DNA of 64,000 nucleotides, taken from the IMG/VR virus record IMGVR_UViG_3300032116_000006; one strand, written 5' to 3'. Below the pieces are notes generated by a model. That model saw only the letters and a program-made list of their open reading frames with translations. It ran no database searches and had not been told where the DNA came from. Shown here piece by piece: positions 8,599 to 55,156 of this stretch. Positions within the stretch are counted from its first letter, which is position 1. Every line of letters begins with the position of its first letter. The stretch is from a virus. Its lineage: Duplodnaviria; Heunggongvirae; Uroviricota; Caudoviricetes. Made by a program: the position numbers and the translations under genes.

Positions 8599-8623
8599 AC
8601 CCCACTTGGTCAACAGGTGGGGT
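8599..8623 (+). terminator. GC-rich hairpin downstream of the gp32-like gene (weak terminator candidate)
   Basis: ACCCCAC-11nt-GTGGGGT stem-loop followed by ATTATTAT. It is unusually GC-rich for this genome. Confidence 0.3.
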
Positions 8624-8647: not shown

Positions 8648-9025
8648 ATGAAAATCTCAACAACACATAAAGAATTTTCAGATCGCTTAAATGACCAAAC
8701 TGCTCTAGAATATCCCGAACATTTTCTTGGACCTAATTGGAAAGATGTATTGAACTTCTGGATTTATTTGGATACTTTGAGTGTTGAAGATTTTAGATTA
8801 ATTATTAATCGTTTTTGGGATGTATGTGCAGATGCTAGAGTTTCTGCTAGGGACAAGGCCTTTAAAGCTGCTGAAGCTACTATAGGTAATGATTATACAA
8901 ATATGGCTTTGTCTGCCGCTGCCGCTGCCGATGGCCCTGCTGGGTCTTCTTATGCAACTCTTGATCTCATTGGTTCTCATAAGCTAGAGTCTCTTAAGTT
9001 TCTTCCTTTGTTTTTAACGAAATGA
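8648..9025 (+). CDS. MKISTTHK-family paralog 1 (array 1)
   Basis: Conserved N-terminus MKISTTHKEFSDRLNDQTALEYPEHFLGPNWKDVLNFWIYLDTLS and C-terminus ATLDLIGSHKLESLKFLPLFLTK. The track ORF starts at a TTG at 8606, but the family-conserved ATG is at 8648. Confidence 0.7.
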   Translation: MKISTTHKEFSDRLNDQTALEYPEHFLGPNWKDVLNFWIYLDTLSVEDFRLIINRFWDVCADARVSARDKAFKAAEATIGNDYTNMALSAAAAADGPAGSSYATLDLIGSHKLESLKFLPLFLTK

Positions 9026-9426
9026 AAATCTCTAAAACACATCAAAAATTTGAATATCTGTTAAGATATAGTGATCATCACGTCCGTCGTCGCCAAACTA
9101 CTCTAGAATACCCTGAACTATTTCTTGGACCCAATTGGAAAAATGTCCTGAACTTCTGGATTTATTTGGATACTTTGAGTGATGAAAAGCTTAATTTAAG
9201 TGATGAAAAGCTTAATTTAATTGATAGGCTCTATTCGTCTTTAGATGATTTGGGGACCTTAAAGATATTTTCTTGGAAAGCTGCTAAAGATACTATAGAT
9301 AATGAATATGCAGATGCAGCTTGGTGGGCCACTCCTACAATTGTATATGGTTATGCAACTCTTGAACTCATCGCTTCACAAGAGCTTAAGTCTCTTAAGT
9401 TTCTTCCTTTGTTTTTAACGAAATGA
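9022..9426 (+). CDS. MKISTTHK-family paralog 2
   Basis: Same conserved termini. The core contains the in-frame tandem duplication SDEKLNLSDEKLNL. ATGA overlap with paralog 1. Confidence 0.7.
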   Translation: MKISKTHQKFEYLLRYSDHHVRRRQTTLEYPELFLGPNWKNVLNFWIYLDTLSDEKLNLSDEKLNLIDRLYSSLDDLGTLKIFSWKAAKDTIDNEYADAAWWATPTIVYGYATLELIASQELKSLKFLPLFLTK

Positions 9427-9788
9427 AAATCTCTAAAACACATAAAGAATTTGCAGATGATTTAAAAGACCAAACTGCTCTAGAATACCCTGAACGATTT
9501 CTAGGACCCAATTGGAAGAATGTCCTGAACTTCTGGATTTACTTGGATACTTTGAGTGATGAAGATTTTGATATAGTTACTAAGCGTTATTTGGATTTAG
9601 ATGCAGATGCTAGAGTTTCTGCTTGGGACAATGCCTTTAAAGCTACTGAAGCTACTATATGTGATGATTATGTATATGTAATTTGGTACTCTGCCGGTAT
9701 AGATGCATCTGTTTATGCAACCCTTGAACTCATCGCTTCACATAAGCTTGAGACTCTCAATTTTCTTCCACTGTTTCTAACCCCATGA
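9423..9788 (+). CDS. MKISTTHK-family paralog 3
   Basis: Conserved termini. Core of the 'DARVSA.DNAFKA.EATI' subtype. Confidence 0.7.
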   Translation: MKISKTHKEFADDLKDQTALEYPERFLGPNWKNVLNFWIYLDTLSDEDFDIVTKRYLDLDADARVSAWDNAFKATEATICDDYVYVIWYSAGIDASVYATLELIASHKLETLNFLPLFLTP

Positions 9789-10150
9789 AAATCTCCACCG
9801 CCCATCAAAAATTTGCAGATCGGTTAAATAACCAAACTGCTCTAGAATACCCTGAACTTTATCTAGGACCCAATTGGAAGGATGTATTGAACTTCTGGTT
9901 GTACTTGGATACTTTGAGTCGTGAAGATTTTAGGTTACTTAATAAGCGTTATTATGCTTTAGAAGAAGATGCTAGAGTTTCTGCTAGAGACAATGCTTTT
10001 AAAGCTGCTGAAGCTACTATAGTTCACGAATATGGAAATGTAGCTTGGTTTGTAACACCTATATATGTATCTAGTCATGCAACCCTTGAACTCATTGGTT
10101 CTCATAATCTAGAATCTCTTAAGTTTCTTCCTTTGTTTTTAACGAAATGA
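9785..10150 (+). CDS. MKISTTHK-family paralog 4
   Basis: Conserved termini. 'DARVSARDNAFKAAEATI' subtype. Confidence 0.7.
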   Translation: MKISTAHQKFADRLNNQTALEYPELYLGPNWKDVLNFWLYLDTLSREDFRLLNKRYYALEEDARVSARDNAFKAAEATIVHEYGNVAWFVTPIYVSSHATLELIGSHNLESLKFLPLFLTK

Positions 10151-10515
10151 AAATCTCAACAACACATCAACAATTTGCAGATCGTTTAAGAAACAAAAGA
10201 GCCATAAAACATCCAGAAGAATTTCTAGGTAAAAATTGGAAAGATGTTTTGAACTTTTGGATCTTTATAGATACTTTGAATGAAGATCAGTGGAAGAGTA
10301 TTAAAGATGCTCATTATTCTTTAAGACTCCATGAATGTAATCTTGCTATTGATGCTGCTATTGATGCTGCTTGGCTTGCTGCAGGCGCCGGTGGATGCGA
10401 TGCTGCTTTGTTTACTTCTGGTTATGCTGCTTGCGAAATTATAGGTTCTCATATACTTAAAGAACAAGGTAAATCTTTAGTCTCCTTTCCACTATACTTA
10501 AAATTTTCTCAATAA
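10147..10515 (+). CDS. MKISTTHK-family paralog 5 (divergent)
   Basis: N-terminus MKISTTHQQFADRL and NWKDVLNFWIFIDTL retained. C-terminus diverged (CEIIGSHILKEQGKSLVSFPLYL). Confidence 0.6.
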   Translation: MKISTTHQQFADRLRNKRAIKHPEEFLGKNWKDVLNFWIFIDTLNEDQWKSIKDAHYSLRLHECNLAIDAAIDAAWLAAGAGGCDAALFTSGYAACEIIGSHILKEQGKSLVSFPLYLKFSQ

Positions 10516-25937: not shown

Positions 25938-26996
25938 ATGGAAGCCACTTTAAATGAATTCATGTCTGATACTCCAGTTTCTTTCAATTTAGGTACACCT
26001 GAACTTGCGCAGTCTATCACAAATCATTTTATCACCAGAAGATATCTGAACGGTGGTAGCTCACATTTAAAGACTTTGAAAATTGAATATGATTTGCAAA
26101 ATCACGATCCCCAACAGCTTATTGATTTGTTTGTAAATATTGGATATAAAGTGATAGGTTGCCTAAGCACTGACTCATTATTATATAATGAACATAATTT
26201 AATTTATACTCGGTTCTTACGTGGTGGTTATTCTAATATTAGTATTCATGGTGATAAGACTAATTTTGATGAAATTGAAAATCTTATTTTATCAAAATTC
26301 AACAAGTGGGATGGCAACAATAAATCTAAAATAAAATGGTGTTTTCTCAATGATTGTGGTAAGATTGAGTATCTAGAATCAAATTTAGAGGAAAAAAATC
26401 CACCCTTCACAGAAATGTATCCATTTCTTAATGGTGAAAGTCTTCATGATTATTATGAGCGATATAACAATTCTTCTGCATCTATTCTCCTTTTGCAGGG
26501 TCCACCCGGTACTGGTAAAACTACATTTATTCGGGGGTTACTACAGCATCTTAAAAAGAGTGCATTATTGTCTTATGATGATGCAATCTTAAAAAGTGAT
26601 AATTTTTTGAATATTTTCATTAAGGATAATAATATAAATTTTCTAGTTTTTGAAGATGCTGATGCTTATCTGACCTCTAGAGAATCTGGTAATAAGGTGA
26701 TTCATAAATTTCTCAATGCTGGTGATGGTCTCATTTCTAAATCTAATAAGAAAATTATCTTCACTACAAATCTTCAAAGTATTACCGATATTGATTCGGC
26801 ACTTACTCGGCCAGGAAGGTGTCATGATATTTTACAATTTCGTAGTCTCACTACAGATGAATCTATTAAAGTTGCCAGCATTTGTAAAATCGAAATTAAA
26901 TTACCAGAAAAAGAATATACAATTGCAGAAATATTTAATACACAAACCAATACTGAGAAGAAAGTAATCCGAAATATTGGGTTTGGCAATCCATGA
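25938..26996 (+). CDS. AAA+ ATPase (classic-clade-like), 352 aa
   Basis: Walker A LLQGPPGTGKTT, Walker B FLVFEDADAY, sensor-1-like FTTN, arginine-finger region RPGRCHD. About 190-aa N-terminal domain. Confidence 0.75.
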   Translation: MEATLNEFMSDTPVSFNLGTPELAQSITNHFITRRYLNGGSSHLKTLKIEYDLQNHDPQQLIDLFVNIGYKVIGCLSTDSLLYNEHNLIYTRFLRGGYSNISIHGDKTNFDEIENLILSKFNKWDGNNKSKIKWCFLNDCGKIEYLESNLEEKNPPFTEMYPFLNGESLHDYYERYNNSSASILLLQGPPGTGKTTFIRGLLQHLKKSALLSYDDAILKSDNFLNIFIKDNNINFLVFEDADAYLTSRESGNKVIHKFLNAGDGLISKSNKKIIFTTNLQSITDIDSALTRPGRCHDILQFRSLTTDESIKVASICKIEIKLPEKEYTIAEIFNTQTNTEKKVIRNIGFGNP

Positions 26997-27352
26997 AAAT
27001 ATCCAACACCCATCAAAGTTTTGCAGATAATTTTAATCTCCAAACTGCTCTATATTATCCTGAACAATTCTTGGGTCCCAATTGGAAAGATGTACTGAAC
27101 TTCTGGCTCTATTTGGATACTTTACATTATGAAGTTCTTAGGTTAATTGACATGAGATATTATACTTTAGGGGAAATAGGGACATTAAAGAAACTTTCTT
27201 GGAATGTTGCTAAAGATACTATAGGTCTTAAATATGCAGATGCAGCTTGGCACGCCAGCCCAACACTTGCAGATGGTTGTGCAACCTGTGAACTTATCGG
27301 CTCACACAATCTTAAGTCTTTGAATTTTCTTCCCTTGTTTTTGAATCTATGA
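26993..27352 (+). CDS. MKISTTHK-family paralog 6 (array 2)
   Basis: MKISNTHQSFADNF...NWKDVLNFWLYLDTL...CELIGSHNLKSLNFLPLFLNL. ATGA overlap with the AAA ATPase stop. Confidence 0.7.
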   Translation: MKISNTHQSFADNFNLQTALYYPEQFLGPNWKDVLNFWLYLDTLHYEVLRLIDMRYYTLGEIGTLKKLSWNVAKDTIGLKYADAAWHASPTLADGCATCELIGSHNLKSLNFLPLFLNL

Positions 27353-27708
27353 AAATCTCTACAACACATCAAAAATTTGCAAATGATTTAAAAGACCAAA
27401 CTGCTCTAGAATACCCTGAATATTTTATAGGTCCCAATTGGAAAGATGTTCTGAACTTCTGGATTTATTTGGACACTTTGAGCGGTGAAAAGCGTAAGAT
27501 AATTAGCAATCGCTTTGATAATCTTGAAGAGCTGGGCCGATTAACAAGTATTACTCTGAAAGCTGCTGAAGATACTATAGGTGTTAAATATGTAGATGCA
27601 GCTTGGAGTGCCCCTCCATCATTTGCATCTGCTTATGCAACCTGTGAACTTATCAATTCACATAATCTAGAGTCTTTTAATTTTCTTCCTTTGTTTTTGA
27701 ATCCATGA
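27349..27708 (+). CDS. MKISTTHK-family paralog 7
   Basis: Conserved termini. 'AAEDTIGVKYVDAAW' core subtype. Confidence 0.7.
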   Translation: MKISTTHQKFANDLKDQTALEYPEYFIGPNWKDVLNFWIYLDTLSGEKRKIISNRFDNLEELGRLTSITLKAAEDTIGVKYVDAAWSAPPSFASAYATCELINSHNLESFNFLPLFLNP

Positions 27709-28118
27709 AAATCTCTAAAATACATAAAAAATTTGCAGATCATTTAGATGATCAAGATGCCCTAAAATATCCTGAAGAATTTCTAGGTACTAATTGGAAA
27801 GATGTTTTGAACTTCTGGATTTATTTGGACACTTTGAGTGATGGAGAACATAATTTAATTAATGAACATAATTTAATTAATGAACATTATTACAATTTAA
27901 ATTGTATTCATGTAAAAGAAGCCAATAAGAAAGCTACTAGACGTATTATAGGTTACTATTGTGCAAATGCAGCTTGGAATGCCACTCCTACAGTTGCATC
28001 TGCTTATGCAACCATTGAACTCATTGGTTCTCATAATCTAGAGTCTATTAATTTACTTTCATTGTTTTATCAATCAGAAACTTTTAAGTGTCACTTCAAA
28101 AACTGGACTAGCACCTAA
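27705..28118 (+). CDS. MKISTTHK-family paralog 8
   Basis: Conserved N-terminus. Core contains the in-frame 21-bp tandem duplication EHNLINEHNLINEH. C-terminus extended and diverged. Confidence 0.6.
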   Translation: MKISKIHKKFADHLDDQDALKYPEEFLGTNWKDVLNFWIYLDTLSDGEHNLINEHNLINEHYYNLNCIHVKEANKKATRRIIGYYCANAAWNATPTVASAYATIELIGSHNLESINLLSLFYQSETFKCHFKNWTST

Positions 28119-28143
28119 ATCAACCTGAGGACAAACAGCTATT

Positions 28144-29205
28144 ATGATAAAAGTTAATTCACTCAAAGACATGACAAATCTTCCATATGATGCTGTAGTT
28201 TTTATTGGCAGATTTAATCCACCTCATCATGAACATTTAAACATCATTTGTCGCGCTTTTGAAACTCTTTCACATAAGGTAATTATAATTATTGGTTCAG
28301 CAGGAAAGCCAAGATCATATAAGAATCCCTTTTTTGAAAACGAAAGGGAAAACCTCATCATTACAAGCCTGCTACATGATTATGGTCATCATACAACACA
28401 GACCGAAAATTTTCATATCTTCCATAGCATTGATTACATTTATGATAACAAAAAATGGGCAGATGAAATCAAAAAGCAAGTAAAAACGGTAACCGCAGAA
28501 ACTGACAAAATTGCAATCATTGGTCACCGAAAAGATCAATCATCATTCTATCTTGACCTATTTCCCGAGTATGATTTGATTGAACAACCAATGACTCAAA
28601 ATCTTAGTTCCACAGATATCCGAAAACTCTACTTCAAAGAATCCCCCAATCTCAACTTTCTTTCGGGTGTTATTACAGATAGTGTAAGTGAGTTTTTGAA
28701 AGAATTTTCAGAAACTGAAGATTTTCAGATGTTGGTGAGAGAAAGGGAGTATGAGGAAAATTATAAGAAGCCCTTTTCACTTTTACCATATCCTCCAGTA
28801 TTTGTAACTGCAGATGCTGTAGTTTTTTCTGGGAATCAAATTCTTTTGATTGAACGAGCCAACGAACCTGGAAAGGGTCTATTGGCTCTTCCTGGTGGAT
28901 TTTTGGATGCTAACTCGGATGCTTCACTCCAAGATGCAATGTTTCGTGAACTTAAAGAAGAAACTGGTCTTGAATTAACTGAAAAAGATATCACAGAATT
29001 CAATGTATTTGATGCAATTGATAGAAGCTCAAGAGGCCGAGTGATCACTATGGCATATACTTTAAATGTTCCAGATCGGTTTTTACATCAAGTCATAGCA
29101 TCTACAGATGCAAAAACTGTAGATTGGTATCCTATCTCAAGTCTAAACCGAAGACAGTTTTTTGAAGATCATTTTGAAATTATTTCTCAATGTGGAGGGT
29201 TTTGA
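28144..29205 (+). CDS. nadM: bifunctional NMN adenylyltransferase / Nudix hydrolase (NadM-Nudix, NatV-like)
   Basis: N-terminal nucleotidyltransferase (H/T)xGH-type motif GRFNPPHHEH. C-terminal Nudix box GGFLDANSDASLQDAMFRELKEETGL (REx2EE). Same architecture as KVP40 NatV. Confidence 0.8.
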   Translation: MIKVNSLKDMTNLPYDAVVFIGRFNPPHHEHLNIICRAFETLSHKVIIIIGSAGKPRSYKNPFFENERENLIITSLLHDYGHHTTQTENFHIFHSIDYIYDNKKWADEIKKQVKTVTAETDKIAIIGHRKDQSSFYLDLFPEYDLIEQPMTQNLSSTDIRKLYFKESPNLNFLSGVITDSVSEFLKEFSETEDFQMLVREREYEENYKKPFSLLPYPPVFVTADAVVFSGNQILLIERANEPGKGLLALPGGFLDANSDASLQDAMFRELKEETGLELTEKDITEFNVFDAIDRSSRGRVITMAYTLNVPDRFLHQVIASTDAKTVDWYPISSLNRRQFFEDHFEIISQCGGF

Positions 29206-30688: not shown

Positions 30689-32065
30689 ATGACAATTTCT
30701 AAATCAATCGTCTGCAACACAGATCTTTACAAATATTCTCAGCCTTATCAATATCCTAAAAATACCCAAGCTATTTTTTCGTATATTGCAAGTCGCGGTG
30801 GAGATTGGGATCAAAGTGTTTTCTTTGGACTTCAAATGTTCCTAAAAGAATATCTTGAACCGAGAGTAACTACTGAAGATATTGATTATGCTCAAGAATT
30901 GATTCCAGCACATGGGCTTCCTTTTTATAGAGATTTGTGGGATTATATTGTTGATGCACATGACGGAAAACTGCCACTAAAAATCAGAGCAGTTCCTGAA
31001 GGAACTGTAGTTCCAACTAAAAATGTTCTAGTTACAATTGAACCAACAGACCAAAACTGCTGGTGGCTTGTAGATCACGTTGAATCTCCTCTTCTTAGGG
31101 GAGTCTGGTATCCCACTACCGTTTGCACTAATTCTTATTTGAGCAAAGCAATCATCAAAGAGTATCTAGAAGAAACTGGATCACCAGAATTGCTATCAAC
31201 TCGTTTGAGTGATTTTGGATTAAGGGGAGTTTCATCTTTTGAATCTTCTGGAATTGGAGGTGTTGCACATCTAGTTCATTTTGATGGAACTGATAATGTA
31301 AATGGATCTCAATATGCTAGACATTTTTATAATAGAAAGTTGACTGGGCTTGAATCCATTCCAGCAATGCAACATTCTACAGTAACATCTTGGGGTAGAG
31401 AAGCTGAAGTTGACTCATATCGCAATATGTTGAGTCTATTTGGGTTTCCTAAAGCTGTTATTGCCTGCGTTAGTGATAGTTACAACATTTATGAGGCATG
31501 TGAAAATCTATGGGGAGACCAATTACGTGAAGAAGTTATTAATTCTGGTGCAATTGTTGTTGTTAGATCTGATAGTGGGGATCCAACAGTCGTTCTACTT
31601 AAATGTCTAGAAATTCTTGATAAGAAATTTGGACACACGGTAAACTCTAAAGGTTATAAAGTCTTGAATAATGTGCGCCTCTTTCAAAGTGATGGAATCA
31701 AACATGATCTAATTTCTAGGATTCTTTATCTTTTCAAGGCCGCTGGGTTCTCTACTGATAACATTGCCTTTGGTCAAGGTGGTGCACTACTTCAACAACT
31801 TGATCGGGATACTCAAAAAGAAGCAATGAAAGGTTCTGCAATTATGATTAATGGCATTTGGTATGAAATGTATAAGGATCCAATTACAGATCCAGGTAAA
31901 AGCTCTTTCAGGGGTCGCTTAGATTTATTCCAAACTGATGATGGAGTTTTCACTGCGAAAGAAGGTTCTTTCAATTACCCATCAGCTCTAAGAAATGTTT
32001 TTGAAAATGGTGATCTTTATCATGTTGAAGATATGGATACCATTAAGGCTAGGGTCACCTTTTAA
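30689..32065 (+). CDS. nadV: nicotinamide phosphoribosyltransferase (NAMPT/NadV)
   Basis: 458 aa. N-terminal TDLYKYSQ and overall length and architecture of NadV. Pairs with nadM-Nudix as in the KVP40 NAD salvage pathway. Confidence 0.85.
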   Translation: MTISKSIVCNTDLYKYSQPYQYPKNTQAIFSYIASRGGDWDQSVFFGLQMFLKEYLEPRVTTEDIDYAQELIPAHGLPFYRDLWDYIVDAHDGKLPLKIRAVPEGTVVPTKNVLVTIEPTDQNCWWLVDHVESPLLRGVWYPTTVCTNSYLSKAIIKEYLEETGSPELLSTRLSDFGLRGVSSFESSGIGGVAHLVHFDGTDNVNGSQYARHFYNRKLTGLESIPAMQHSTVTSWGREAEVDSYRNMLSLFGFPKAVIACVSDSYNIYEACENLWGDQLREEVINSGAIVVVRSDSGDPTVVLLKCLEILDKKFGHTVNSKGYKVLNNVRLFQSDGIKHDLISRILYLFKAAGFSTDNIAFGQGGALLQQLDRDTQKEAMKGSAIMINGIWYEMYKDPITDPGKSSFRGRLDLFQTDDGVFTAKEGSFNYPSALRNVFENGDLYHVEDMDTIKARVTF

Positions 32066-34332: not shown

Positions 34333-34416
34333 CGGCCTCTGATGGAATAGGTAGACATAGTGGACTTAAAATCCCCTGTCCGTAAGGGCGTAAGAGTTCG
34401 AGTCTCTTGGGGCCGA
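34333..34416 (+). tRNA. tRNA-Leu (anticodon TAA), class II with long variable arm; 3' CCA not encoded
   Basis: Manual fold. Acceptor CGGCCTC/GGGGCCG (7 bp, one GU). D-stem ATG/CAT. Anticodon stem GTGGA/TCCCC (one mismatch) with loop CTTAAAA. Variable arm ~15 nt. T-arm AAGAG-TTCGAGT-CTCTT. Discriminator A. Confidence 0.65.
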
Positions 34417-35672: not shown

Positions 35673-38600
35673 ATAAGTTATTTTATGCACTAAGAATGGG
35701 GTTATCAAGACTTAGCCAACTGTTATCAAATATAACCGGAAGAACTTTATATGTAAACCCTGATTCAATAGATGCAACAGATTCTATTGAAAATCGTGGC
35801 AATTCTCCAACAAGACCTTTTAATGGTCTAAACCGTGCAATCGCAGAAGCTGTAAGATTCTCATATCAAACTGGACCAAATAATGATAGATTTGCTAGAT
35901 GCACCATTATTCTTTCCCCTGGTTATCATAGAGTAACTAATCGCCCTGGATGGATTCCAGATGGTTCAAATAATTTCATATTAAGAAACGGAACAACTTC
36001 AAGTAATTTCTCTCAATGGGATATTAATACTAATTTTGATTTTAATTCAAGCAATAATGCACTCTATAAATTAAATTCAATACATGGTGGAATTTTTCTA
36101 CCTCGTGGTGTTAGCATTATTGGTCAAGATTATAGAAAAACTATAATTGTTCCAGATTATATTCCAAATCCTGAAAATGATTTAATTGAAAGATGTGGAG
36201 TTTTTCTTCTTACTGGTCAGAACTTTATTAATGAAATAACCATTGAAGACCCTTCAGAGAGTGTTTATATTGATTACACAAATAATAGATATTCTCCAAA
36301 ATTTTCACAACATAAATTAACAAACTTTGAAATGGCAGATGGTGTAAATCCAGTTGCCATAAATGATGGAATTATTGAATATTCATCTACTAGAACCGAT
36401 CTTCAAATGTATTATGAGAAGATCGGTCTAGTTTTTGGTGCATCTTCAGGTAGAGAAATAAAACCAGATTATCCCTCATCTTCAGTTGATATTCAACCAA
36501 GAATTGATGAATATAGAATTGTTGGTTCAAGAGGAAAGGAAGTCTTATTAAGTGCAATACAAGCTGGAAATGGTATTACCGCCACAACCACAATTACTGC
36601 AACTCTCTCAGAGCCTATTAATGATTTAGATGTAAATACTCCAATTAGAGTTCAAGGTGTTCCAGTTTCTGGATATGACGGCCAATTTATAATTAAACAA
36701 ATCATTAGTCCAACTCAAGTAGTTTATGAAGTTTCAGTTGCTCCAATAGTTGCAAATCCATCTTTAGCTTCATCAACTGCAACTTTAAATATTTCTGTTG
36801 ATACTATCACATCTTCTTCGCCTTATCTTTTTAATCTAGCAAGTAAAACTGTTTGGGGGAGAAATGGCCTTGATGTTGATGGCTCTAAAATTTCTGGCTT
36901 TAAGTCAGTTGTAGTAGCTCAATTTACTGGAATTGGCCTACAAAAAGATCCCAAAGCATTTGTAAAATATAATACAGCTTCTGGAATTTTTGAAGATTTT
37001 TCTGCTTCAGGTAACGAAAATATTCAAACATCTAGTAGAGCATATTATAAACCCTCTTATGAAAACTTTCATATTAAGGCGAGTAATGATGGTTATGTTC
37101 AAGTAGTTTCAGTATTTGCTATCGGTTATGCCCATCAATTTTTATCAGAAAGTGGTGCAGATCAATCCATCAATGCTTCAAACTCTAATTTTGGTTCAAA
37201 AGCCTTAGTTTCTCGTGGATTTAGAAGTTCAGCATTTGTTCGTGATGATGTTGGTTATATTACACACATTATTCCACCGAAAGAAATTAAAACTACTGAA
37301 AATGCAATCACATACGATTCAATTGATGTTGGCATTACAACCTCAGTTGGACTAGCATCTCGCTTGTATTTTTATAATAAAAAATCTCTCGCTTCTCCCC
37401 CAGATTCTGTCATTGAAGGATTTAGAATTGGTGCAAACCCTTATGATTCATTAAGAGTTGTTATTAATTCTAGAGAATATTTTTCAACAATTGTGATGCC
37501 AAACTCGGCTAAAACGGGTGAAAAATCATATTCTGTTGGTAGAAGTAATGCTGGAATCAATAGTATCACTTCAGATACATTTACATTAACTGAAACTCAT
37601 ACATTTGTATCTGGGGAATCTGTAAGAGTTATTAGTGAAACTGGGCAACTTCCAAATAGTCTAAATTCTGGATTGTATTATGTCATTACTACTGGTAATC
37701 CAAATGAAATTAAACTTGCTCAAACCTTCACAGATGCCTTAACAGGAACAGAACTGTCTGTGAGCCCCTCTGGGGGGCCTCTGAGCATCGTTAGTCGGGT
37801 CTCAGACAAAGTGGCCGGAGAAATTGGACATCCTATTCAATTTGATCCTAATAATGGTTGGTATATCACTGTAGCAGTTTCTTTTGATAATCTTTTAAAT
37901 AGCATCTATTATAGTTTGAATACAGTTTCAAGAATAGCGACTCAAAGAACATATTTTTATCGTAGAAATGACAATCGTAGTTTGGGTGATACAATATATA
38001 AGCTTCGTTATGTTATTCCATCATCTGTTGATGCGGCTAGACCTCCTCTTGACGGCTATATTATTCAAGAGACTAATAGTACAATTGGCAAATCAAATAC
38101 TGAAGTTGAGTCACAATTTAATCCATCAACAACTACATTAAATTCAACATTCCAACTAAGAAACCAAAAGTTGATTGCCAATGCAAGTTGGTCAGCAAAT
38201 ACTGCAACTTTTGAATGTGAAGTTTCTCATAAACTCTCCATTGGTTCTGAAGTTGAAATAAAAAATGTAAAGAGCACTAATAATACAACTAGCCTAGATA
38301 ACTTAGGTTATAATGGAACATTCATTGTTACTGAGATTGTTAATGGAAAAATATTCAAAGTCATCCTTGAAACTAATCCTGGAACATTTACAAACAACAC
38401 ATCACAAAGAACCGTAGATTCACCTTATTTTATAAGAAAAAAATATAATAATATCTTCTACATTTATAAAGTTGAAGAGACTAAAAAACATATTCCCGGT
38501 GTTCAAGATGGAGTTTATTATCTTACTATACTGAATTCGTCAAATTATCCTGCAGTAGAACCCTTTAGGAATAAAGGATATTCTCAACCAATTCAAAATC

Positions 38601-41600
38601 TTTATCCTCAGAAGAATAGGGACAATCCAATTTCTGATCCAAAGGAAACGGCTTGTTATACTCTTCCTGATCCTCTTGGGCAGGTTGTTGTAAATAATCC
38701 ACAATACTCACTCACAAAAGAAACTTTACAAAGAGTTTTTCTTGAGAATGCTATTGGTATTGGTGTCACAAATATCATTTCAAATAGTGCTGGAACCGCT
38801 CACACAATTTATACCACATTAGATCATGGACTTGATCCAATTACTTCAGTTTCAATTACGTCTCCTGGAAATGGTTATGGAATTGGATCTGGGAGTAATG
38901 AAACTTACTATAATGCTAAATTAGTTAATATTTCTTCATCCGGTGAAAATGCAACAGCGAGTATTATTGTAAATTCAAGTGGATCTATCTCTAGTATTCG
39001 TATTATGGATGGTGGCAGCAATTATAATGTTGGAGATAGATTAAGTGTGGTTGGAATTGCAACGACAACTGGATATACAGTTGGAATTGTAAGTGTTGCA
39101 TCAATTTATAGTCATGTTGGAGAAACAATAAAGGTCAATAAAACTTTAGACCGATACAATACCAGTTATAGAATTACTGGAATTACAAGTAGTAGAGCGA
39201 TTCAAGTAAGTTCTGCCTCTTCAATAATCTCTCCATCTATATCTGGAATTGGAAGTGTTTCAATTGGACAATGTTATGCTGAATTGACCGGAAAAGCCAT
39301 TGCAATCTCATCAGTCGTCCATTCATCTGGAATTGCAACTATAACAACAATTGATTCACATGATTTATACGTTGACAATAAAATTCTTTTTGGTGGATTT
39401 ACTGAAAGTCCATTTAATAGAGAGTTTTTAGTGAATGGTGTTGTTGGTCTCAATACATTTACAGTAGCTACAGGTAGTACAAATATTTCTGTATCTTTCA
39501 CTCAAACTCCATATGCCTATAGACAAGGTGCAGCTTCTAATGGTGGCTCTTATACTAATGACAATGAAGGTTTAAGAACTAGAATGATTCCTTTATATTC
39601 TGGAATCACTACAACTTTATCTGGAAACATTAATTCCACTATAACTACAATTAATGTTTCAAATGCAGTTAATTGTGGTCTAAAAATTGGAGACTATTTA
39701 CAAATTGATGAAGAATTTGTAAGAATTTCAACAACAGTTGTTTCCAATACCCTTACTGTTTTTCGTGGGGTTTTGGGTTCAAGAAGTTCTTCACATTCTT
39801 CTGGAGCTATTGTTTATAAGATTGGCATTGTTCCCATTGAACTTAGACGCAACTCTTTACTTCGGGCAAGTGCACATACATTTGAATATAATGGCTTTGG
39901 ATCTGGAAATTATTCATCAGCTCTACCAGATAGACAAGATAGAACCTTATCCCAACAGGAAGAATTATTAGCACAATCAACCAAAGAAAATGGCGGCATC
40001 GTTGTTTTTTCTGGGATGAATGCAAATGGTAGTTTTTATGTTGGAAATAAAAAAGTTAATTCTGCAACTGGAACCGAAGAAATTTTTGAGACTCCAATAC
40101 CTACTATTACTGGCGAAGATGTCAGTACATTAAGTGGTTACAATAATGTAAATACATTTGAAGCGACTATTAATCGCTCTCTGTTTGTTGAAGGTGGGGC
40201 TAACAAAAATCTTATTTCACAATTTGATGGACCCGTTGTTTTTAATAATAAAATAGTTTCAAATTCTGAAAGAGGATTTGAAGCATCTTCAATGCTATTA
40301 TATGGTCAAGGATTAACACCAAGAAATTATACAATTGGTTCATCTGAACCGAAATTATCTGGAAATCCTGGTGATGTTCAATATAATTCAGAGCCAATAA
40401 GTGGTGGATTTTTAGGTTGGGTCTATACCACAAATAATCGTTGGGAAAAATTTGGAAAAATCGGAAGCAGTGGATTATCTGTTGATAATAGTGTCGGAGT
40501 TTCTAGTAATGGCTCTTTTGTTGGACTTTCAACTCTTATTGACTTTAAGACAAGTGGAATTGTTCTGACTTCTTCATATGATTCAGTAAGCGGGATTACA
40601 ACATTAAATTTTTCTGGTGCTTCACCTTTAGGTAATAGTATTGGTATTTCAACTGGTTCTAATAATTTTGTTGGAATGGCAACTCAAATTAATTTTGTCG
40701 GTAGTCCAAATATTGATATAATTGGAACTGGTGGAACGGGAATTAATACAATAAGAGTCGGAATTTCATCTACTTCTTCAATATTAGCTTCAGGTTTCAT
40801 TAAAAGAGGTGCAACCGGAACCAATTTCTTAAAAGCTGATGGGTCAGATGCAACCATTACTTACAATGAGGTTACCAATGCCTTAGGTTATGTTCCTGCA
40901 AATTCAGGTTCAGTCTCTGGTGGTTCTGAAACTGGTAATTCAATTATTTTAGATCAATTATCATCTTTTAATGGAATTACTTCTACATTTGATTTAAAAC
41001 TTAATGGGAATCTTTTTGTTCCCCCTGGTGGACCTGCTAATTTAATTGTATCTCTTGGCGGAATTATTCAAAGGCCAGGAACTGATTATTTTATTCCTCA
41101 AAATGCTGGAATTAATACAAGCAAGATACAATTTACTGATGTACCTTTATCTGGTCTTTCACACTTTATTGTTAGTCTTGGTGGTCAAGGATCCCTATTA
41201 AGTAATGGATCTTGGAACTCTAAAGGAGATTTAGTTGTTGGTCTTACTGATAATAATGCAGGTATTTTAAGTGTTGGTGCTAATGGTCAGGTTCTTACCG
41301 TTGATAGTAATTCTCCAGTTGGAGTAGCTTGGACTGATGGCCCAAAAATAATTTTAGCTGGATCTCAAAATACAAGCAGTGGAAATTCAATTAGTTATAC
41401 AGACATTCCAAGCTGGGCTAAAAAAATTACAATATCATTTGAAGGGGTTGGTATTAATGGTTCTGGAGATATTCTAATTCAATTAGGAACTAATAGTATA
41501 ATAACTTCTGGATATGAATCAACAAGTTCAAAAGTTAGTACGGCTGTTGCAACAATAAATTCAACCAATGGATTCATTGTTGAGAGTGATGGTTTCACTG

Positions 41601-41803
41601 CCCTAATAGGTGGCCATTTTACTTTAACTACAAATGGAGGAAATAAGTGGATTAGTAGTCATACTATGAGAGGTGGCCTTTCTGCTTCTTATTTCGGAGC
41701 TGGAAATGTTACATTATCTTCATTATTACAACAAATTCATATTAGTATTACAAACTCAAATAGTTTTACTTCTGGTTCTATTAATGTCATTTACGAGGGC
41801 TAA
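35669..41803 (+). CDS. giant fibre/structural protein, 2044 aa (likely tail fibre or decoration fibre with many beta-rich repeats)
   Basis: Single uninterrupted ORF. Ser/Thr/Gly/Asn/Ile-rich with recurring GxxGYxxG.G..S-type segments typical of phage fibre proteins. The track start is GTG at 35669. The first in-frame ATG is 35696 (MGLSRLSQ). Confidence 0.7.
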   Translation: MHKLFYALRMGLSRLSQLLSNITGRTLYVNPDSIDATDSIENRGNSPTRPFNGLNRAIAEAVRFSYQTGPNNDRFARCTIILSPGYHRVTNRPGWIPDGSNNFILRNGTTSSNFSQWDINTNFDFNSSNNALYKLNSIHGGIFLPRGVSIIGQDYRKTIIVPDYIPNPENDLIERCGVFLLTGQNFINEITIEDPSESVYIDYTNNRYSPKFSQHKLTNFEMADGVNPVAINDGIIEYSSTRTDLQMYYEKIGLVFGASSGREIKPDYPSSSVDIQPRIDEYRIVGSRGKEVLLSAIQAGNGITATTTITATLSEPINDLDVNTPIRVQGVPVSGYDGQFIIKQIISPTQVVYEVSVAPIVANPSLASSTATLNISVDTITSSSPYLFNLASKTVWGRNGLDVDGSKISGFKSVVVAQFTGIGLQKDPKAFVKYNTASGIFEDFSASGNENIQTSSRAYYKPSYENFHIKASNDGYVQVVSVFAIGYAHQFLSESGADQSINASNSNFGSKALVSRGFRSSAFVRDDVGYITHIIPPKEIKTTENAITYDSIDVGITTSVGLASRLYFYNKKSLASPPDSVIEGFRIGANPYDSLRVVINSREYFSTIVMPNSAKTGEKSYSVGRSNAGINSITSDTFTLTETHTFVSGESVRVISETGQLPNSLNSGLYYVITTGNPNEIKLAQTFTDALTGTELSVSPSGGPLSIVSRVSDKVAGEIGHPIQFDPNNGWYITVAVSFDNLLNSIYYSLNTVSRIATQRTYFYRRNDNRSLGDTIYKLRYVIPSSVDAARPPLDGYIIQETNSTIGKSNTEVESQFNPSTTTLNSTFQLRNQKLIANASWSANTATFECEVSHKLSIGSEVEIKNVKSTNNTTSLDNLGYNGTFIVTEIVNGKIFKVILETNPGTFTNNTSQRTVDSPYFIRKKYNNIFYIYKVEETKKHIPGVQDGVYYLTILNSSNYPAVEPFRNKGYSQPIQNLYPQKNRDNPISDPKETACYTLPDPLGQVVVNNPQYSLTKETLQRVFLENAIGIGVTNIISNSAGTAHTIYTTLDHGLDPITSVSITSPGNGYGIGSGSNETYYNAKLVNISSSGENATASIIVNSSGSISSIRIMDGGSNYNVGDRLSVVGIATTTGYTVGIVSVASIYSHVGETIKVNKTLDRYNTSYRITGITSSRAIQVSSASSIISPSISGIGSVSIGQCYAELTGKAIAISSVVHSSGIATITTIDSHDLYVDNKILFGGFTESPFNREFLVNGVVGLNTFTVATGSTNISVSFTQTPYAYRQGAASNGGSYTNDNEGLRTRMIPLYSGITTTLSGNINSTITTINVSNAVNCGLKIGDYLQIDEEFVRISTTVVSNTLTVFRGVLGSRSSSHSSGAIVYKIGIVPIELRRNSLLRASAHTFEYNGFGSGNYSSALPDRQDRTLSQQEELLAQSTKENGGIVVFSGMNANGSFYVGNKKVNSATGTEEIFETPIPTITGEDVSTLSGYNNVNTFEATINRSLFVEGGANKNLISQFDGPVVFNNKIVSNSERGFEASSMLLYGQGLTPRNYTIGSSEPKLSGNPGDVQYNSEPISGGFLGWVYTTNNRWEKFGKIGSSGLSVDNSVGVSSNGSFVGLSTLIDFKTSGIVLTSSYDSVSGITTLNFSGASPLGNSIGISTGSNNFVGMATQINFVGSPNIDIIGTGGTGINTIRVGISSTSSILASGFIKRGATGTNFLKADGSDATITYNEVTNALGYVPANSGSVSGGSETGNSIILDQLSSFNGITSTFDLKLNGNLFVPPGGPANLIVSLGGIIQRPGTDYFIPQNAGINTSKIQFTDVPLSGLSHFIVSLGGQGSLLSNGSWNSKGDLVVGLTDNNAGILSVGANGQVLTVDSNSPVGVAWTDGPKIILAGSQNTSSGNSISYTDIPSWAKKITISFEGVGINGSGDILIQLGTNSIITSGYESTSSKVSTAVATINSTNGFIVESDGFTALIGGHFTLTTNGGNKWISSHTMRGGLSASYFGAGNVTLSSLLQQIHISITNSNSFTSGSINVIYEG

Positions 41804-42724: not shown

Positions 42725-42825
42725 ATAACTTAAGTGACTTAAAGAACTTAAATACTCTTAAAGATTCTTAAGTTACTTAAATACTCTTAAGTTATTTAAA
42801 GATTCTTAAAGATACTTAAGTAACA
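42725..42825. repeat. CTTAAG/CTTAAA-rich iterated repeat cluster in the 516-bp divergent intergenic region
   Basis: Units such as ACTTAAATACTCTTAA and AAGATTCTTAA each occur twice. Many CTTAAG palindromes fall within ~100 bp. Confidence 0.6.
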
Positions 42826-42834
42826 ATTAATAAA

Positions 42835-43575
42835 ATGATTCATTATCTCTTACAATCAGGAAACATTCTATCCACTGAAAAATCTGCATGTCTTAGAACA
42901 GAACATAAAATTACATGGACTGCTCATTCAAATCTTTTTAATACTATCAATCATCTTCTATTAACAGATAAACTTTCAGATATTATTCCTGTAGGATCTG
43001 TAGAATTTTGTAGAACTTATACTGAAATTGTAGGACTTGAGTTACCTGATGATTTTTCATATGGTTCAGTAGATATTTCTTTAATAGAACCATATTTAAA
43101 AAGAAAAATCAATAAAACAACTTTTGCGTTAGCAAAAGAATGTAGTTTCATTAAGCCGGTCTACACTAAACTTTTTACTGGAGACATTAAGAATCGCATT
43201 AATGATTCATCGCTTTCAGAATTTGAAGTATGGGAATCTGAACCTGTAGAATTTACAGCAGAATTTAGATTCTATATCTATAGGGATAAAGTTATTGGTT
43301 ATTCTCGTTATGATGATTTAGACTGTGATTGTAAAGAACTAGACCACCATTTAATTGAAAAAATTATTAAAGTGCAAAACTCTTTCCCAATTGCTTATTC
43401 AATTGATATTGGTTGGCGAAATGATATTAATGAGTGGAGTCTTATTGAATTAAATGATGCATGGGCCTTGGGTTTTTATAATAATAGTGATACCTCTTCA
43501 AAACCCCCAAAAAGCAGTGATTATGCTCTAATGATTGCAGAAAGGTGGAGAGAAATTGTAAATGGACAGATTTGA
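42835..43575 (+). CDS. hypothetical protein, 246 aa
   Basis: ORF. Confidence 0.55.
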   Translation: MIHYLLQSGNILSTEKSACLRTEHKITWTAHSNLFNTINHLLLTDKLSDIIPVGSVEFCRTYTEIVGLELPDDFSYGSVDISLIEPYLKRKINKTTFALAKECSFIKPVYTKLFTGDIKNRINDSSLSEFEVWESEPVEFTAEFRFYIYRDKVIGYSRYDDLDCDCKELDHHLIEKIIKVQNSFPIAYSIDIGWRNDINEWSLIELNDAWALGFYNNSDTSSKPPKSSDYALMIAERWREIVNGQI

Positions 43576-43653
43576 AAGTGTCTATAAAATTTTCAACAGC
43601 TTGAAAAGTGATGTATGATTTTGTTGTCAGATACTAGACTTAATAAAAAGATT

Positions 43654-44019
43654 AAAATCAAAATGAAAGCCTATAAAATTGAAATTCTCGTCATTGATAA
43701 TGAGAATATTGGAGAAGAATCTATTAAAGAATACATTAAAAATGCCAAGTACATTTATCCATCAATTTTATCAATAAAATCTAAAGAAATTGGTGATTGG
43801 TCAGATGATCATCCACTTAATAAGAAAGAAACATTTTCCAAAACTGCTAAAGACTTATTTAACCATATAAGTCATGAAAAATTAAAAGAATGGATTGAAG
43901 ATCAAGAATACTATTTGGGTTCTCCAGAAGACATTGGAGATGGTCAACATTTTGAATATTATATTCAACCACATACTTTAGAGCAATTAATTGAGTTAGC
44001 ACTTGAGGAGTTATCATGA
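43654..44019 (+). CDS. hypothetical protein (~121 aa)
   Basis: The track ORF starts at 43615. The ATG at 43654 (MKAYKIEILV) is a likelier start. Confidence 0.45.
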   Translation, partial: KIKMKAYKIEILVIDNENIGEESIKEYIKNAKYIYPSILSIKSKEIGDWSDDHPLNKKETFSKTAKDLFNHISHEKLKEWIEDQEYYLGSPEDIGDGQHFEYYIQPHTLEQLIELALEELS

Positions 44020-48074: not shown

Positions 48075-48440
48075 ATGAAAATCTCTACAACACATAAAAG
48101 ATTTGCAGATCATTTAGATGACCAAATCGCTCTAGAATACCCTGCACGTTTTCTAGGACCCAATTGGAAGAATGTATTGAACTTCTGGATCTATTTGGAT
48201 ACTTTGAGTGGTGAAGAATTTAGGTTAATTTTTGATCGTTATTGGGCTTTAGATGAAGATGCTAGAGTTTCTGCTATAAATAATGCTCATAAAGCGGCTG
48301 AAGCGACTATAGATATTCATTATACATATACAACTCGTGGTGCCGCCCTTACACTTGCACCTGCTTATGCATCCCTTGAACTCATTGGTTCTCATAAGCT
48401 AGAGTCTCTTAATTTTCTTCCTTTGTTTCTAAACCAGTGA
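48075..48440 (+). CDS. MKISTTHK-family paralog 9 (array 3)
   Basis: Conserved termini. 'DARVSAINNAHKAAEATI' subtype. Starts 2 nt after the upstream stop. Confidence 0.7.
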   Translation: MKISTTHKRFADHLDDQIALEYPARFLGPNWKNVLNFWIYLDTLSGEEFRLIFDRYWALDEDARVSAINNAHKAAEATIDIHYTYTTRGAALTLAPAYASLELIGSHKLESLNFLPLFLNQ

Positions 48441-48808
48441 AAATATCTTCTTCTCATCAAAAATTTGCAGATCGGTTAAATAACCAAACTGCTCTAGAAT
48501 ACCCTGAACGTTTTCTGGGACCTAATTGGAAGGATGTATTGAATTTCTGGATTTATTTGGATACTTTGAGTCGTGAAGAGCTTGATAAAGTCTATGAGCA
48601 TCATCGTGGTTTGAAAGACATACATATATCAAGGCGTCTTGCTTGGTGTGCTGCTAAGGATACTATAGGTTATGATTATACAAATGCAGCTGCATTTGCA
48701 TATTATGTTAATTGTTATAATGCCGCTGGATGTCATGCAACCAGTGAACTCATTGGTTCTCATAAGCTTGAGACCTTGACGTTTTTTCCTTTGTTCATAA
48801 ATTTTTAA
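48437..48808 (+). CDS. MKISTTHK-family paralog 10
   Basis: MKISSSHQKFADRL...ELIGSHKLETLTFFPLFINF. Confidence 0.7.
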   Translation: MKISSSHQKFADRLNNQTALEYPERFLGPNWKDVLNFWIYLDTLSREELDKVYEHHRGLKDIHISRRLAWCAAKDTIGYDYTNAAAFAYYVNCYNAAGCHATSELIGSHKLETLTFFPLFINF

Positions 48809-48816
48809 ACTTATTC

Positions 48817-49965
48817 ATGAATTTACTTAATGGCATTGTAGATATATTCCCATCAATAGAACCACAAAATTTTTTGGAAACTCCAAAAAGAATTAAACTT
48901 GGATTTGATCCAACAACAGATTTTTTACATTTAGGTCATGCTGTTCTTTTAAGAAAATTAAGGCAATTTCAAAATGAAAATCATACTCCTGTAATAATTA
49001 TAGGTGACTTTACTGCAAGAATTGGAGATCCAACAGGAAAATCAAAAACTAGAAAACAATTAACCAAAGAAGAAGTAGAATTCAATACCAATGAATTTTT
49101 GAATACTCTTTCAAATTTTATTGACCCCGAAAAATCTGAAATTATTTTTAATTCTAAACATTTAGAACAATTATCTCTATCTACAATTATACAATTACAA
49201 TCATTGGTAACAGTAAATCAACTCCTAGCGAAAAGGGATTTTCATCAAAGATTTGAATTACAAAGCCCTATCAGTTTGCATGAATTTATGTATCCACTAC
49301 TTCAAGGATATGATAGTCATGTAATATCATCTGAAATAGAACTTGGAGGAATTGATCAAAAATTTAACATCTCAATGGGTAGAGATGTTCAAAGACATTT
49401 CAAAAATAAAAATGAACAAATTGGAATGTTAATGCCAATTTTATGTGGTACTGATGGTGCCAATAAAATGTCTAAAAGTTTGAATAATGCAATAAAAATT
49501 GATGAACATCCTTTAATAATGTTTTCTCAATTGGAAAAAATTCCAGATAATTTAGTAGATGAATATATTCTTCTACTCACCGACTGTAATTTGGGAGATT
49601 TTTCTCCAGATCCTAGAGAAAGGCAAAAACAAATGGCCTTTGAGATTGTTTCAGAATTTTATGGTTCTGAAGTTGCTCTAAAGTCTATGAATGAATCTCA
49701 ACAGATCGTTTTGTCTAATTCAAATATATCAGATGTCCCAGAGATAGTTGTTTCACATTTGCAGTTTCCATTACCTCTTGCAACTTTATTGAGAGAAACT
49801 AAATTATCAGATAGTTCATCTGCAGCAAGAAGATCAATTCGTTCAGGTTGTATTAAATTAGATGGGATTAAAATTACAGATGAAAATATTATGGTTGATA
49901 TAAATGATATTGAAAATAAAATTATAAGAATGTCAAAGAACTCTTTTCATCGTTTTGTCATGTGA
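48817..49965 (+). CDS. tyrS: tyrosyl-tRNA synthetase (class I aaRS), 382 aa
   Basis: HIGH motif as HLGH (DFLHLGHAVLL), TyrRS-typical IGDPTGKS, and KMSKS motif (KMSKSLNNAI). C-terminal S4-like region. Confidence 0.8.
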   Translation: MNLLNGIVDIFPSIEPQNFLETPKRIKLGFDPTTDFLHLGHAVLLRKLRQFQNENHTPVIIIGDFTARIGDPTGKSKTRKQLTKEEVEFNTNEFLNTLSNFIDPEKSEIIFNSKHLEQLSLSTIIQLQSLVTVNQLLAKRDFHQRFELQSPISLHEFMYPLLQGYDSHVISSEIELGGIDQKFNISMGRDVQRHFKNKNEQIGMLMPILCGTDGANKMSKSLNNAIKIDEHPLIMFSQLEKIPDNLVDEYILLLTDCNLGDFSPDPRERQKQMAFEIVSEFYGSEVALKSMNESQQIVLSNSNISDVPEIVVSHLQFPLPLATLLRETKLSDSSSAARRSIRSGCIKLDGIKITDENIMVDINDIENKIIRMSKNSFHRFVM

Positions 49966-53095: not shown

Positions 53096-53908
53096 ATGTC
53101 TCTCGTAAAAGTTGGTCTAGGTCTTGGTGCTGGCGTCCTGGTTCTTGCACTTATTTCCGGGCAATGGACAACAATCAATACAGGTGAAAACGGACTTTAC
53201 ACTGGATTTGATGGCCAGGTAAAGAATGAAGTTCTCACCCCCGGTATTAAATATGATGGTTTTGGTTCAATTAAAGTCTTCAATACTCGTAAGATTACGG
53301 TGACGGCAAATGACCTTCGCCCCAAGACTAAAGATAACACCATCATGAAGGAGATGGATGTGACCGTAACCTACAGTATCAATCCCACCTCTCTCTATGA
53401 TTTCTATACTGGTTATGATATGACCAATCACTCTATCAGCGAAAATGGACAAATTCAACTCATGTCCAGTTACATTGCTCGTCTGATTACTTCTGCTGTC
53501 AATCAATCTGTGGACGAATTCCCCGCTTTGGTTGTAAACAGCAGCCTTGGACAGGTTCAAGATACGATTAAGATTAATCTAAGCGAATCTCTAAAGAAAA
53601 ATGGTCTTGAGGGAAAGATTACCATTGATTCAATCATTGTTGGTAAAGCTGATCTTCCTGATACTCTTGTTGAATCTGTGAACCGTGTGGTTGCGGCCCA
53701 ATCTGCAAATAAAGAGCAACAAGTGAAGACTGAAACTGCCCAATTGAAAGCTGAAGAGAACAAGGCTCTTGCATCTACTGTGACGGCACAATCTCTTGAG
53801 TATCAACGTCTTGAAGTTCTTCGTGAAGCGATGAGGAATGGTAGCATTCAAAAAATTCTGATTAATGGTGCCAATGTTCTTTCACTTTCTGATAATGTTT
53901 TTAAGTGA
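53096..53908 (+). CDS. SPFH/band-7 (prohibitin/HflKC-like) domain protein, 270 aa
   Basis: N-terminal TM anchor. SPFH-like core (TKDNTIMKEMDVTVTYSINP). C-terminal coiled-coil (QVKTETAQLKAEENKALA...QRLEVLREAM). Confidence 0.65.
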   Translation: MSLVKVGLGLGAGVLVLALISGQWTTINTGENGLYTGFDGQVKNEVLTPGIKYDGFGSIKVFNTRKITVTANDLRPKTKDNTIMKEMDVTVTYSINPTSLYDFYTGYDMTNHSISENGQIQLMSSYIARLITSAVNQSVDEFPALVVNSSLGQVQDTIKINLSESLKKNGLEGKITIDSIIVGKADLPDTLVESVNRVVAAQSANKEQQVKTETAQLKAEENKALASTVTAQSLEYQRLEVLREAMRNGSIQKILINGANVLSLSDNVFK

Positions 53909-55060: not shown

Positions 55061-55156
55061 ATGGAGAAAAAATTCAATCGGAAAAAGAATGAAACTAAAG
55101 GACACTTTATGGAGAAAAAATTCAATCGGAAAAAGAATGAAACTAAAGGACACTTT
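55061..55156 (+). repeat. 48-bp perfect tandem duplication (2 units: ATGGAGAAAAAATTCAATCGGAAAAAGAATGAAACTAAAGGACACTTT)
   Basis: Read directly: 55061..55108 is identical to 55109..55156. The unit ends with the dispersed GGACACTTT motif. Confidence 0.85.

Follow-up and report, generated by a model that had tools for sequence, protein, structure and literature searches.

T4-like phages possess hyperplastic regions that are subject to modular shuffling mediated by promoter/stem-loop (PeSL) modules (Comeau, Arbiol and Krisch 2014, PMC4122927). The subject of the present analysis is a family of small genes in a 64,000-nt stretch of viral DNA (IMG/VR record IMGVR_UViG_3300032116_000006; the whole stretch is called the window below), which derives from a 249,543-bp metagenomic contig of a T4-like, Kyanoviridae-related myovirus that is known from metagenomes alone. 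The window carries 14 copies of a gene for a protein of about 120 amino acids (aa), all on the + strand and distributed over six loci (5 + 3 + 2 + 2 + 1 + 1), which together occupy 5,220 nt or 8.2% of its length. At least 11 more paralogs lie outside the window, in the 249.5-kb genome or in a near-identical assembly of 249,370 bp, giving at least 25 copies in total. They constitute a phage multigene family that is new and uncharacterised but belongs to a known general kind. An original prediction, made from the sequence alone, had described the genes as mobile or recombining cassettes inserted at the stop codons of unrelated genes. What we consider the probable explanation is a recombining, phage-specific multigene family that occupies six loci in the window, and not a set of self-mobile cassettes.

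The resemblance to the hyperplastic regions of T4-like phages is considerable, since here too variable small open reading frames (ORFs) are found between conserved T4-type core genes, homologous recombination at short repeats produces indels between close relatives, and near-identical phages differ in gene content. The difference lies in the substrate of recombination, which in the present case is formed by the coding blocks of the family itself and not by a PeSL at the borders of the modules. Copies follow each other without a spacer, promoter-like sites do not exceed chance, only a single clear hairpin was found, after gp32, and the cargo is one paralogous family.

Multigene families with accordion-like dynamics are also known from large DNA viruses, as illustrated by amplification of K3L in poxviruses, the multigene families (MGF) 110, 360 and 505 of African swine fever virus, and the bro genes of baculoviruses. 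Tandem as well as dispersed paralogs, copy-number variation between strains, a recombination-driven origin of that variation and a presumed role in host interaction are common to these families and the one described here. In contrast to them, the present family belongs to a tailed bacteriophage, its units are ORF-exact with stop/start overlaps, and its copies diverged long ago, keeping a common scaffold around a variable middle.

Copies in the window and in related genomes

The positions of the copies and of the features bordering them are given below; gene calls across the window are heuristic.

8599-8623, + strand: GC-rich 10-bp hairpin, terminator-like, after gp32 and upstream of array A
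8648-10515, + strand: array A, five copies between gp32 and the convergent gp53-like gene (A1 8648-9025, A2 9022-9426, A3 9423-9788, A4 9785-10150, A5 10147-10515; A5 is a divergent 'long form' of the family)
25938-26996, + strand: AAA ATPase gene, upstream neighbour of array B
26993-28118, + strand: array B, three head-to-tail ORFs between the AAA ATPase and NMNAT genes
26993-27352, + strand: B1, 119 aa, its start overlapping the AAA ATPase stop (ATGA)
27349-27708, + strand: B2, 119 aa, the copy used for structure modelling
27705-28118, + strand: B3, 137 aa, with a read-through C-terminal tail and an in-frame micro-duplication (18 nt, 2.6 times, at 27846-27891)
43577-43735, no strand: empty site G, 159 nt
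48075-48808, + strand: array C (C1 48075-48440; C2 48437-48808, GTG start), between a 109-aa ORF and the tyrosyl-tRNA synthetase gene
58726-59450, + strand: array D (D1 58726-59082; D2 59079-59450), after a 65-aa ORF (58532-58729)
60913-61272, + strand: E1, a singleton between the SF2 helicase gene and a DenV-like gene
61865-62239, + strand: F1, a singleton and divergent subfamily member between the DenV-like gene and an RNase_T-like exonuclease gene

It had been stated that every copy starts with the same sequence. This applies to 12 of the 14 copies, which have the exact motif ATGAAAATCTC; B1 begins with ATGAAAATATC and C2 with GTGAAAATATC.

The closest relative is a strain from sample GROS21-1 (loci L020-L022; the close strain below), with a median aa identity of 96.7% for non-family orthologs. 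More distant are a 243.5-kb lineage (L001-L003 and L023, with L019 related; median 81.5%) and a genome of 243,166 bp (L025; median 59%). The nearest isolates are the Synechococcus phages B3 and B23 (Kyanoviridae); phage B3 (locus L028) was compared via gp32, which is just 50% identical. Scans of IMG/VR with the AAA ATPase, the helicase and NMNAT did not find close relatives, and one metagenome scan with the helicase yielded two loci only. The copy numbers per site are as follows.

Site A: five in the window, three in the close strain, two plus a 57-aa ORF in the 243.5-kb lineage, none in phage B3
Site B: three in the window; at least three in the close strain, with an extra upstream copy and a mosaic third copy; two in locus L027; in L025 unrelated small ORFs and no family member
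Site C: two in the window, one in the 243.5-kb lineage
Site D: two in the window, one in the close strain, two in the 243.5-kb lineage
Site E: one each in the window, the close strain and the 243.5-kb lineage, two in L019
Site F: one each in the window, the close strain and the 243.5-kb lineage, with positional orthologs in L019, L022 and L023
Site G: none in the window, three in the 243.5-kb lineage

Copy number varies between close genomes in the manner of accordion-like families (five versus three at site A, two versus one at site D, in strains that differ little in their other genes). The sequence upstream of the array A junction is alike in L001 and L021. As the original prediction implied, flanking genes also occur next to each other without the putative cassettes: in phage B3 the gp32 and gp53-like genes are 35 nt apart, and site G is empty in the window, its counterpart in the 243.5-kb relative measuring 2,294 nt and containing three family copies together with unrelated small ORFs. 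The opposite pattern, in which the same ORFs diverge as their flanks do and show no polymorphism, is clearly not observed. For positional homologs of the family, identity falls to 54-92% with the close strain and to 40-51% with the 243.5-kb lineage, whereas the flanks have medians of 96.7% and 81.5%. The occupied positions are largely conserved across lineages, but their content is not.

Site G lies directly 3' of an R2K-like gene (42835-43575), just 5' of which the intergenic region contains a degenerate array (42729-42821) of 10/19/29-nt repeats of the CTTAAGT type. Beside the extra array of the 243.5-kb relative, three small ORFs that are absent from the window were noted (L023 5834-6509); one encodes a Cys-rich protein of 96 aa with CxxC pairs, and another a protein of 64 aa that by eye resembles a ribbon-helix-helix (RHH) protein.

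Direct evidence for exchange comes from sites D, B and E, where unequal homologous recombination of the accordion type has left a hybrid, a mosaic and an ORF replacement, respectively. The single copy at site D of the close strain matches D1 over nt 1-95 and D2 over nt 190-372, and such a hybrid of a D1 5' part and a D2 3' part is the product expected from unequal crossover in the conserved N-terminal block. The third copy at site B in L020 is B3-like over nt 1-130, near-identical to B2 over nt 135-265, and again B3-like to its end. At site E, window and close strain are identical until 2 nt before the ATG and again, except for one mismatch, from the stop codon onward; the middle of the ORF is 40-60% identical, and the paralog of the close strain as a whole is just 54% identical between flanks of about 100% identity. 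At this site a different paralog has taken the place of the entire ORF.

Further traces are found throughout the family. Array A of the close strain contains mosaic copies that combine A2-type middles with A3- or A4-type tails. Within the window, the nearest neighbour of a copy differs among its N-terminal, middle and C-terminal regions; A3 and E1, for example, are 95% identical in the N-terminal block (with an exact run of 58 nt) and 59% identical in the middle. The copies cluster by genome, not by position. A deletion of four aa (L----ESL vs ILEQGKSL) is common to 12 window copies at five loci and absent from A5, F1 and all copies of the 243.5-kb lineage that were examined, which requires exchange between loci or their re-seeding. 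The idea of recombining units is largely supported by these data, and the breakpoints are located in the conserved 5' and 3' coding blocks or coincide with them.

Junctions with upstream genes

The suggestion of cassette insertion was based on the distance between the first copies and the stop codons upstream of them. These distances had been given correctly, and five of the six first copies begin -4 to +6 nt from the upstream stop. ATGA overlaps exist with the AAA ATPase gene and the 65-aa ORF, and there are gaps of 2 nt after the 109-aa ORF (which ends at 48072), 4 nt between the helicase gene (end at 60908) and E1, and 6 nt between a 170-aa ORF (end at 61858) and F1. The latter ORF, previously described as merely Cys-rich, is the DenV-like gene and encodes a pyrimidine-dimer glycosylase (Pfam Pyr_excise). 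It was also correct that array A alone has a real upstream gap (76 nt after gp32) and that this gap holds the GC-rich hairpin. What does not hold is the use of these distances as an insertion footprint. The 77 same-strand junctions between non-family genes have a median gap of 3 nt; in 53% of them the gap does not exceed 6 nt, and 11 consist of an ATGA overlap. Finding five of six family-entry junctions equally tight has a binomial p of ~0.14. Since the background spacing is just as tight, the close fit to upstream stop codons represents the normal gene packing of this genome. The observation of abutment is accurate, and its statistical weight is nil. The distinctive junctions are those within the arrays: all eight copy-to-copy junctions are ATGA overlaps or, once, a GTGA overlap, with zero non-coding bases, whereas 14% of background junctions are of this kind.

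Junction micro-homology, for which a search had been recommended, gave no general signal. When the 18 nt preceding each first copy were scored with a position weight matrix for the 3' end of the family, the six window junctions were at background percentiles 0.04-0.81 (Fisher p ~0.2), and the helicase and AAA ATPase genes were marginally similar to the family at their 3' ends, within the top 4-9% of background. The C-terminus of the AAA ATPase (IGFGNP-stop) was considered as a leftover of the family 3' end (PLFLNP-stop). This was ruled out, since distant AAA orthologs end in -IGFAM or -IGFDL and conservation of the IGF motif in them indicates that the tail is not family-derived. Past the 3' end of the window, the close strain has a two-copy family array (L022 17260-17978) that follows an RNA-ligase-like gene and has an ATGA overlap with a Zeta_toxin/AAA_33 kinase-like gene; its first copy is preceded by about 35 nt that represent a decayed family 3' end.

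No non-coding recombination site was found between copies. There are no attC-like inverted repeats, a scan of 26900-28200 giving one internal palindrome, and no PeSL, promoter or terminator modules between copies, the only clear hairpin being the one after gp32. Promoter-like sites occur at chance level (16 observed vs 13.5 expected, 21 vs 17.7, and 28 vs 28.4). The T4 late-promoter motif TATAAATA is absent upstream of all arrays and depleted in the window (3 vs 9.25 expected); one of the three falls inside family copy C1 (48275-48282). Since there is no room for promoters, co-transcription with upstream genes, or riding on neighbouring transcripts as it was called, is plausible.

Integron cassettes are similar to the copies described here in being promoterless, ORF-sized units that form same-orientation arrays, the content of which varies between relatives. 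Unlike in integrons, there is no attC-like site at the 3' ends of the units, no spacer, and no IntI integrase with attI and a Pc promoter next to the arrays, and all 'cassettes' are paralogs of one gene. Neither did the neighbourhood Pfam tables contain another recombinase, a transposase or an endonuclease beside the arrays (these tables cover the neighbours of the arrays and not every ORF of the window), and homing endonucleases of the GIY-YIG, HNH, LAGLIDADG or similar types are neither encoded by the family nor adjacent to it. A mechanism of the diversity-generating retroelement type appears unlikely as well, with no reverse transcriptase among the annotated neighbours and variation that is not limited to one pair of template and variable repeats.

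Conserved ends, variable middle and alternative explanations

An alignment of the window copies gives a conserved N-terminal block of ~45 codons (MKIS.TH..FA....Q.AL.YPE.FLGPNWKDVLNFWIYLDTLS) and a conserved C-terminal block of ~25 codons (YAT.ELIGSH.L..L.FLPLFL), separated by a variable middle. The extreme N-terminus (M1 K2 I3 S4) is invariant across the 14 copies. An AlphaFold2 model of B2 is all-alpha, with a mean predicted local distance difference test score (pLDDT) of 95.8, and the N- and C-terminal blocks form one compact predicted domain. By sequence, nothing in Pfam, PHROGs, NCBIfam, PADLOC or the PDB matches the protein; it also lacks a match in BFVD and similarity to any nuclease or recombinase, and homology to known defence or anti-defence families was not found. 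There are 349 relatives in a database of 5.8 billion proteins and 447 clusters at 50% identity in a representative library. Relatives that have a name in their source are called 'hypothetical protein', save one with the Joint Genome Institute label 'DOMON domain-containing protein' (P0099); some are fused tandems or have N-terminal extensions, and the metagenomic protein P0216 is a fusion of the family domain with an RHH domain. Isolated phages gave no family match (tblastn with three different members against 50,697 phage records), and a pattern scan of GTDB species genomes found no member in bacteria or archaea.

The proportion of synonymous differences (pS) and the ratio of nonsynonymous to synonymous divergence (dN/dS) along the gene, counted by the simple Nei-Gojobori method for paralogs of an AT-rich genome, are as follows.

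N-terminal block: pS 0.35, dN/dS 0.28
Middle: pS 0.32, dN/dS 1.41 (bootstrap confidence interval (CI) 1.06-1.91)
C-terminal block: pS 0.36, dN/dS 0.51

Because pS is flat (0.32-0.36) along the gene, the conserved ends are kept by purifying selection at the protein level, and homogenisation of the 5' and 3' ends at the DNA level is ruled out. A rare ATC codon is retained at position 3, as are other rare codons. According to these counts, the rate of change in the middle, which comprises three predicted helices (residues ~46-91), equals or exceeds the neutral one. Four copies also have recent in-frame micro tandem duplications in this region. The copies themselves are old and divergent (50-71% aa identity, pS ~0.33; 50-85% identical at the nucleotide level).

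The process that emerges for a recombining multigene family is the following. Copies occupy variable junctions between conserved genes, always on the presumed early/middle-gene strand and head-to-tail via ATGA overlaps. Arrays expand, contract and exchange segments by ordinary homologous recombination, for which the conserved N- and C-terminal coding blocks of the genes provide the homology arms, and this leads to differences in copy number and content even between strains that are ~97% identical in other genes. Expression is probably polycistronic with the upstream genes and translation may be coupled through the ATGA overlaps; strand and neighbours suggest that expression is early or middle. 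The products could constitute a diversifying set of host-directed proteins, active in anti-defence or host take-over, for which the dN/dS of 1.41 in the middle is indirect evidence. Their conserved scaffold would then expose a variable surface, and new variants could be drawn from the arrays.

The part of the original prediction that stands is that the copies are exchangeable, recombining units that are polymorphic in presence and absence; that they are autonomous cassettes is not supported, as no mobility enzyme or site was detected. Insertion of integron-like, homing-endonuclease-driven or transposon-like elements at or near stop codons would account for presence/absence and copy-number polymorphism at orthologous sites, for the ORF-precise boundaries at site E, and for the marginal resemblance that the helicase and AAA ATPase genes bear to the family at their 3' ends. 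We regard such site-specific mobility as very unlikely, given that copies are joined by overlaps without any spacer, that inverted repeats and general junction micro-homology were not found, that the Pfam tables of the neighbourhood list no integrase, endonuclease or transposase and the family protein is unlike any nuclease or recombinase, that occupied positions are conserved across lineages at ~80% aa identity, and that the indel at site G carries unrelated ORFs too. It may also be argued that the paralogs are ancient and static, and that polymorphism and mosaics result from collapsed or chimeric repeats in metagenome assemblies. The comparisons indeed rely on short-read assemblies, contig L020 ends within an array, and exact runs of up to 58 nt between copies could confuse assembly graphs at low k. 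Still, independent assemblers and samples agree on array structure (the gene layout of array B is identical in three independent assemblies, and three agree on array A of the 243.5-kb lineage), collapse is unlikely for copies that are 50-85% identical, the site E variant diverges 2 nt before the ATG and thus ahead of any long shared block, and in phage B3, an isolate, gp32 and the gp53-like gene are neighbours without a cassette. The chance that assembly artefacts explain the whole pattern therefore appears minimal.

A role in the virion deserves somewhat more attention. The T-even ip loci encode hypervariable small proteins that share a conserved N-terminus, which serves as a targeting peptide, and that act against restriction; T4 IPI* counters a host restriction system. 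By analogy, the family could consist of packaged internal proteins that are injected into the host, with MKIS.TH..FA as a capsid-targeting signal and the variable remainder as effector. Its occurrence in a T4-type phage as a hypervariable set of small proteins, the invariant first four residues and a dN/dS of at least 1 in the middle are in agreement with this. The differences are that the conserved part is not a short leader but comprises ~45 residues at the N-terminus and 25 at the C-terminus, all within a single predicted domain, that the alignment shows no L/I-x-E protease motif after the first ~10 residues (residues 8-12), and that the genes are spread over many loci of the + strand, where their neighbours serve replication and nucleotide metabolism and are not head genes. 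Sequence similarity to the ip proteins is lacking, as judged indirectly from negative PHROGs and PDB searches. An Ip-like function is thus unlikely. Pure dosage amplification, i.e. a genomic accordion in which redundant copies raise the expression of one function, would be compatible with tandem head-to-tail copies with presumably coupled translation and with strain-to-strain variation in copy number. Near-identical copies are typical of recent amplifications, whereas those found here are old, divergent and strongly differentiated in their middles, and we consider this explanation quite improbable.

Several points weigh against the explanation by a recombining multigene family that we prefer. 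It does not account for the way in which a first copy reaches a new locus, and a clear remnant of a family 3' end precedes a first copy in a single case (L022:17242-17259). All metagenomic relatives are short-read assemblies, in which some calls of copy number or mosaic structure could be assembly errors. Furthermore, dN/dS of the middle is 0.89 (CI 0.60-1.28) in the 243.5-kb lineage, and with a simple count on paralogs relaxed constraint is not separable from positive selection.

A more far-reaching possibility, which we put forward tentatively, is that the family constitutes a phage-encoded, recombination-fed variation system, in which a conserved helical scaffold presents a hypervariable three-helix surface for recognition of polymorphic host targets such as defence effectors or toxins. 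Gene-conversion cassette systems and tandem immunity arrays, e.g. pilE/pilS, vlsE and the immunity arrays of polymorphic toxins, also have conserved flanking coding blocks that frame a variable segment swapped between paralogs, and the arrays described here may similarly act as a reservoir of variants. In contrast to those systems, the copies are complete and apparently expressed ORFs instead of silent partial cassettes, and no expression locus is distinguished. If the proposal is correct, the arrays would be both an expressed repertoire and a set of gene-conversion donors, and closely related phages would carry different repertoires. This would make the family a bacteriophage analogue of antigenic-variation or immunity-gene arrays, on a fold without known relative.

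Genomic setting and significance

The T4-type genes in the neighbourhood of the copies include gp32, gp59, a gp53-like gene, baseplate genes, PhoH, Thy1, NMNAT/Nudix, NAMPT, TyrRS, an RNA ligase, the SF2 helicase and DenV. The phage encodes enzymes of NAD salvage (a bifunctional NMNAT/Nudix enzyme, 28144-29205, and NAMPT, 30689-32065) and a full-length tyrosyl-tRNA synthetase (48817-49965), the nearest cellular relatives of which are cyanobacterial (47-50% identity). These genes would fit a cyanobacterial host. A longer NAMPT homolog (771 aa as compared to 458 aa in the window) is encoded by the 243,166-bp relative (L025 14053-16368) and suggests that the gene has been fused or extended; a NADAR-domain gene follows the NMNAT gene there.

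Other features of the window are a single tRNA-Leu(TAA) gene (34333-34416) and a very large ORF (35696-41803) of ~2,044 aa, which is 84% conserved in the 243.5-kb relative and has no Pfam family in precomputed tables. A Band_7 (SPFH) gene that is intact in the window (53096-53908) is represented by two ORFs of 100 and 164 aa in the close strain (L022 4367-5183). The top short tandem repeat is a perfect duplication of 48 nt (two copies, 55061-55157; score 194, 100% match).

For the scanning of genomes, the lesson is that abutment of stop codons should be judged against the spacing distribution of the genome itself before it is called an insertion footprint. With respect to phage biology, a single family without known relatives accounts for about 8% of the window and at least 25 genes of this 250-kb phage genome, and forms the fastest-changing part of that genome. 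The three recombination footprints indicate that turnover of an accessory repertoire needs only homology inside the genes themselves. With 447 clusters at 50% identity and a confident all-alpha model, the family is a defined target for structural and functional work, and among the genes of this uncultured group of freshwater T4-like (Kyanoviridae-related) phages it is a prime candidate for involvement in host interaction or anti-defence.

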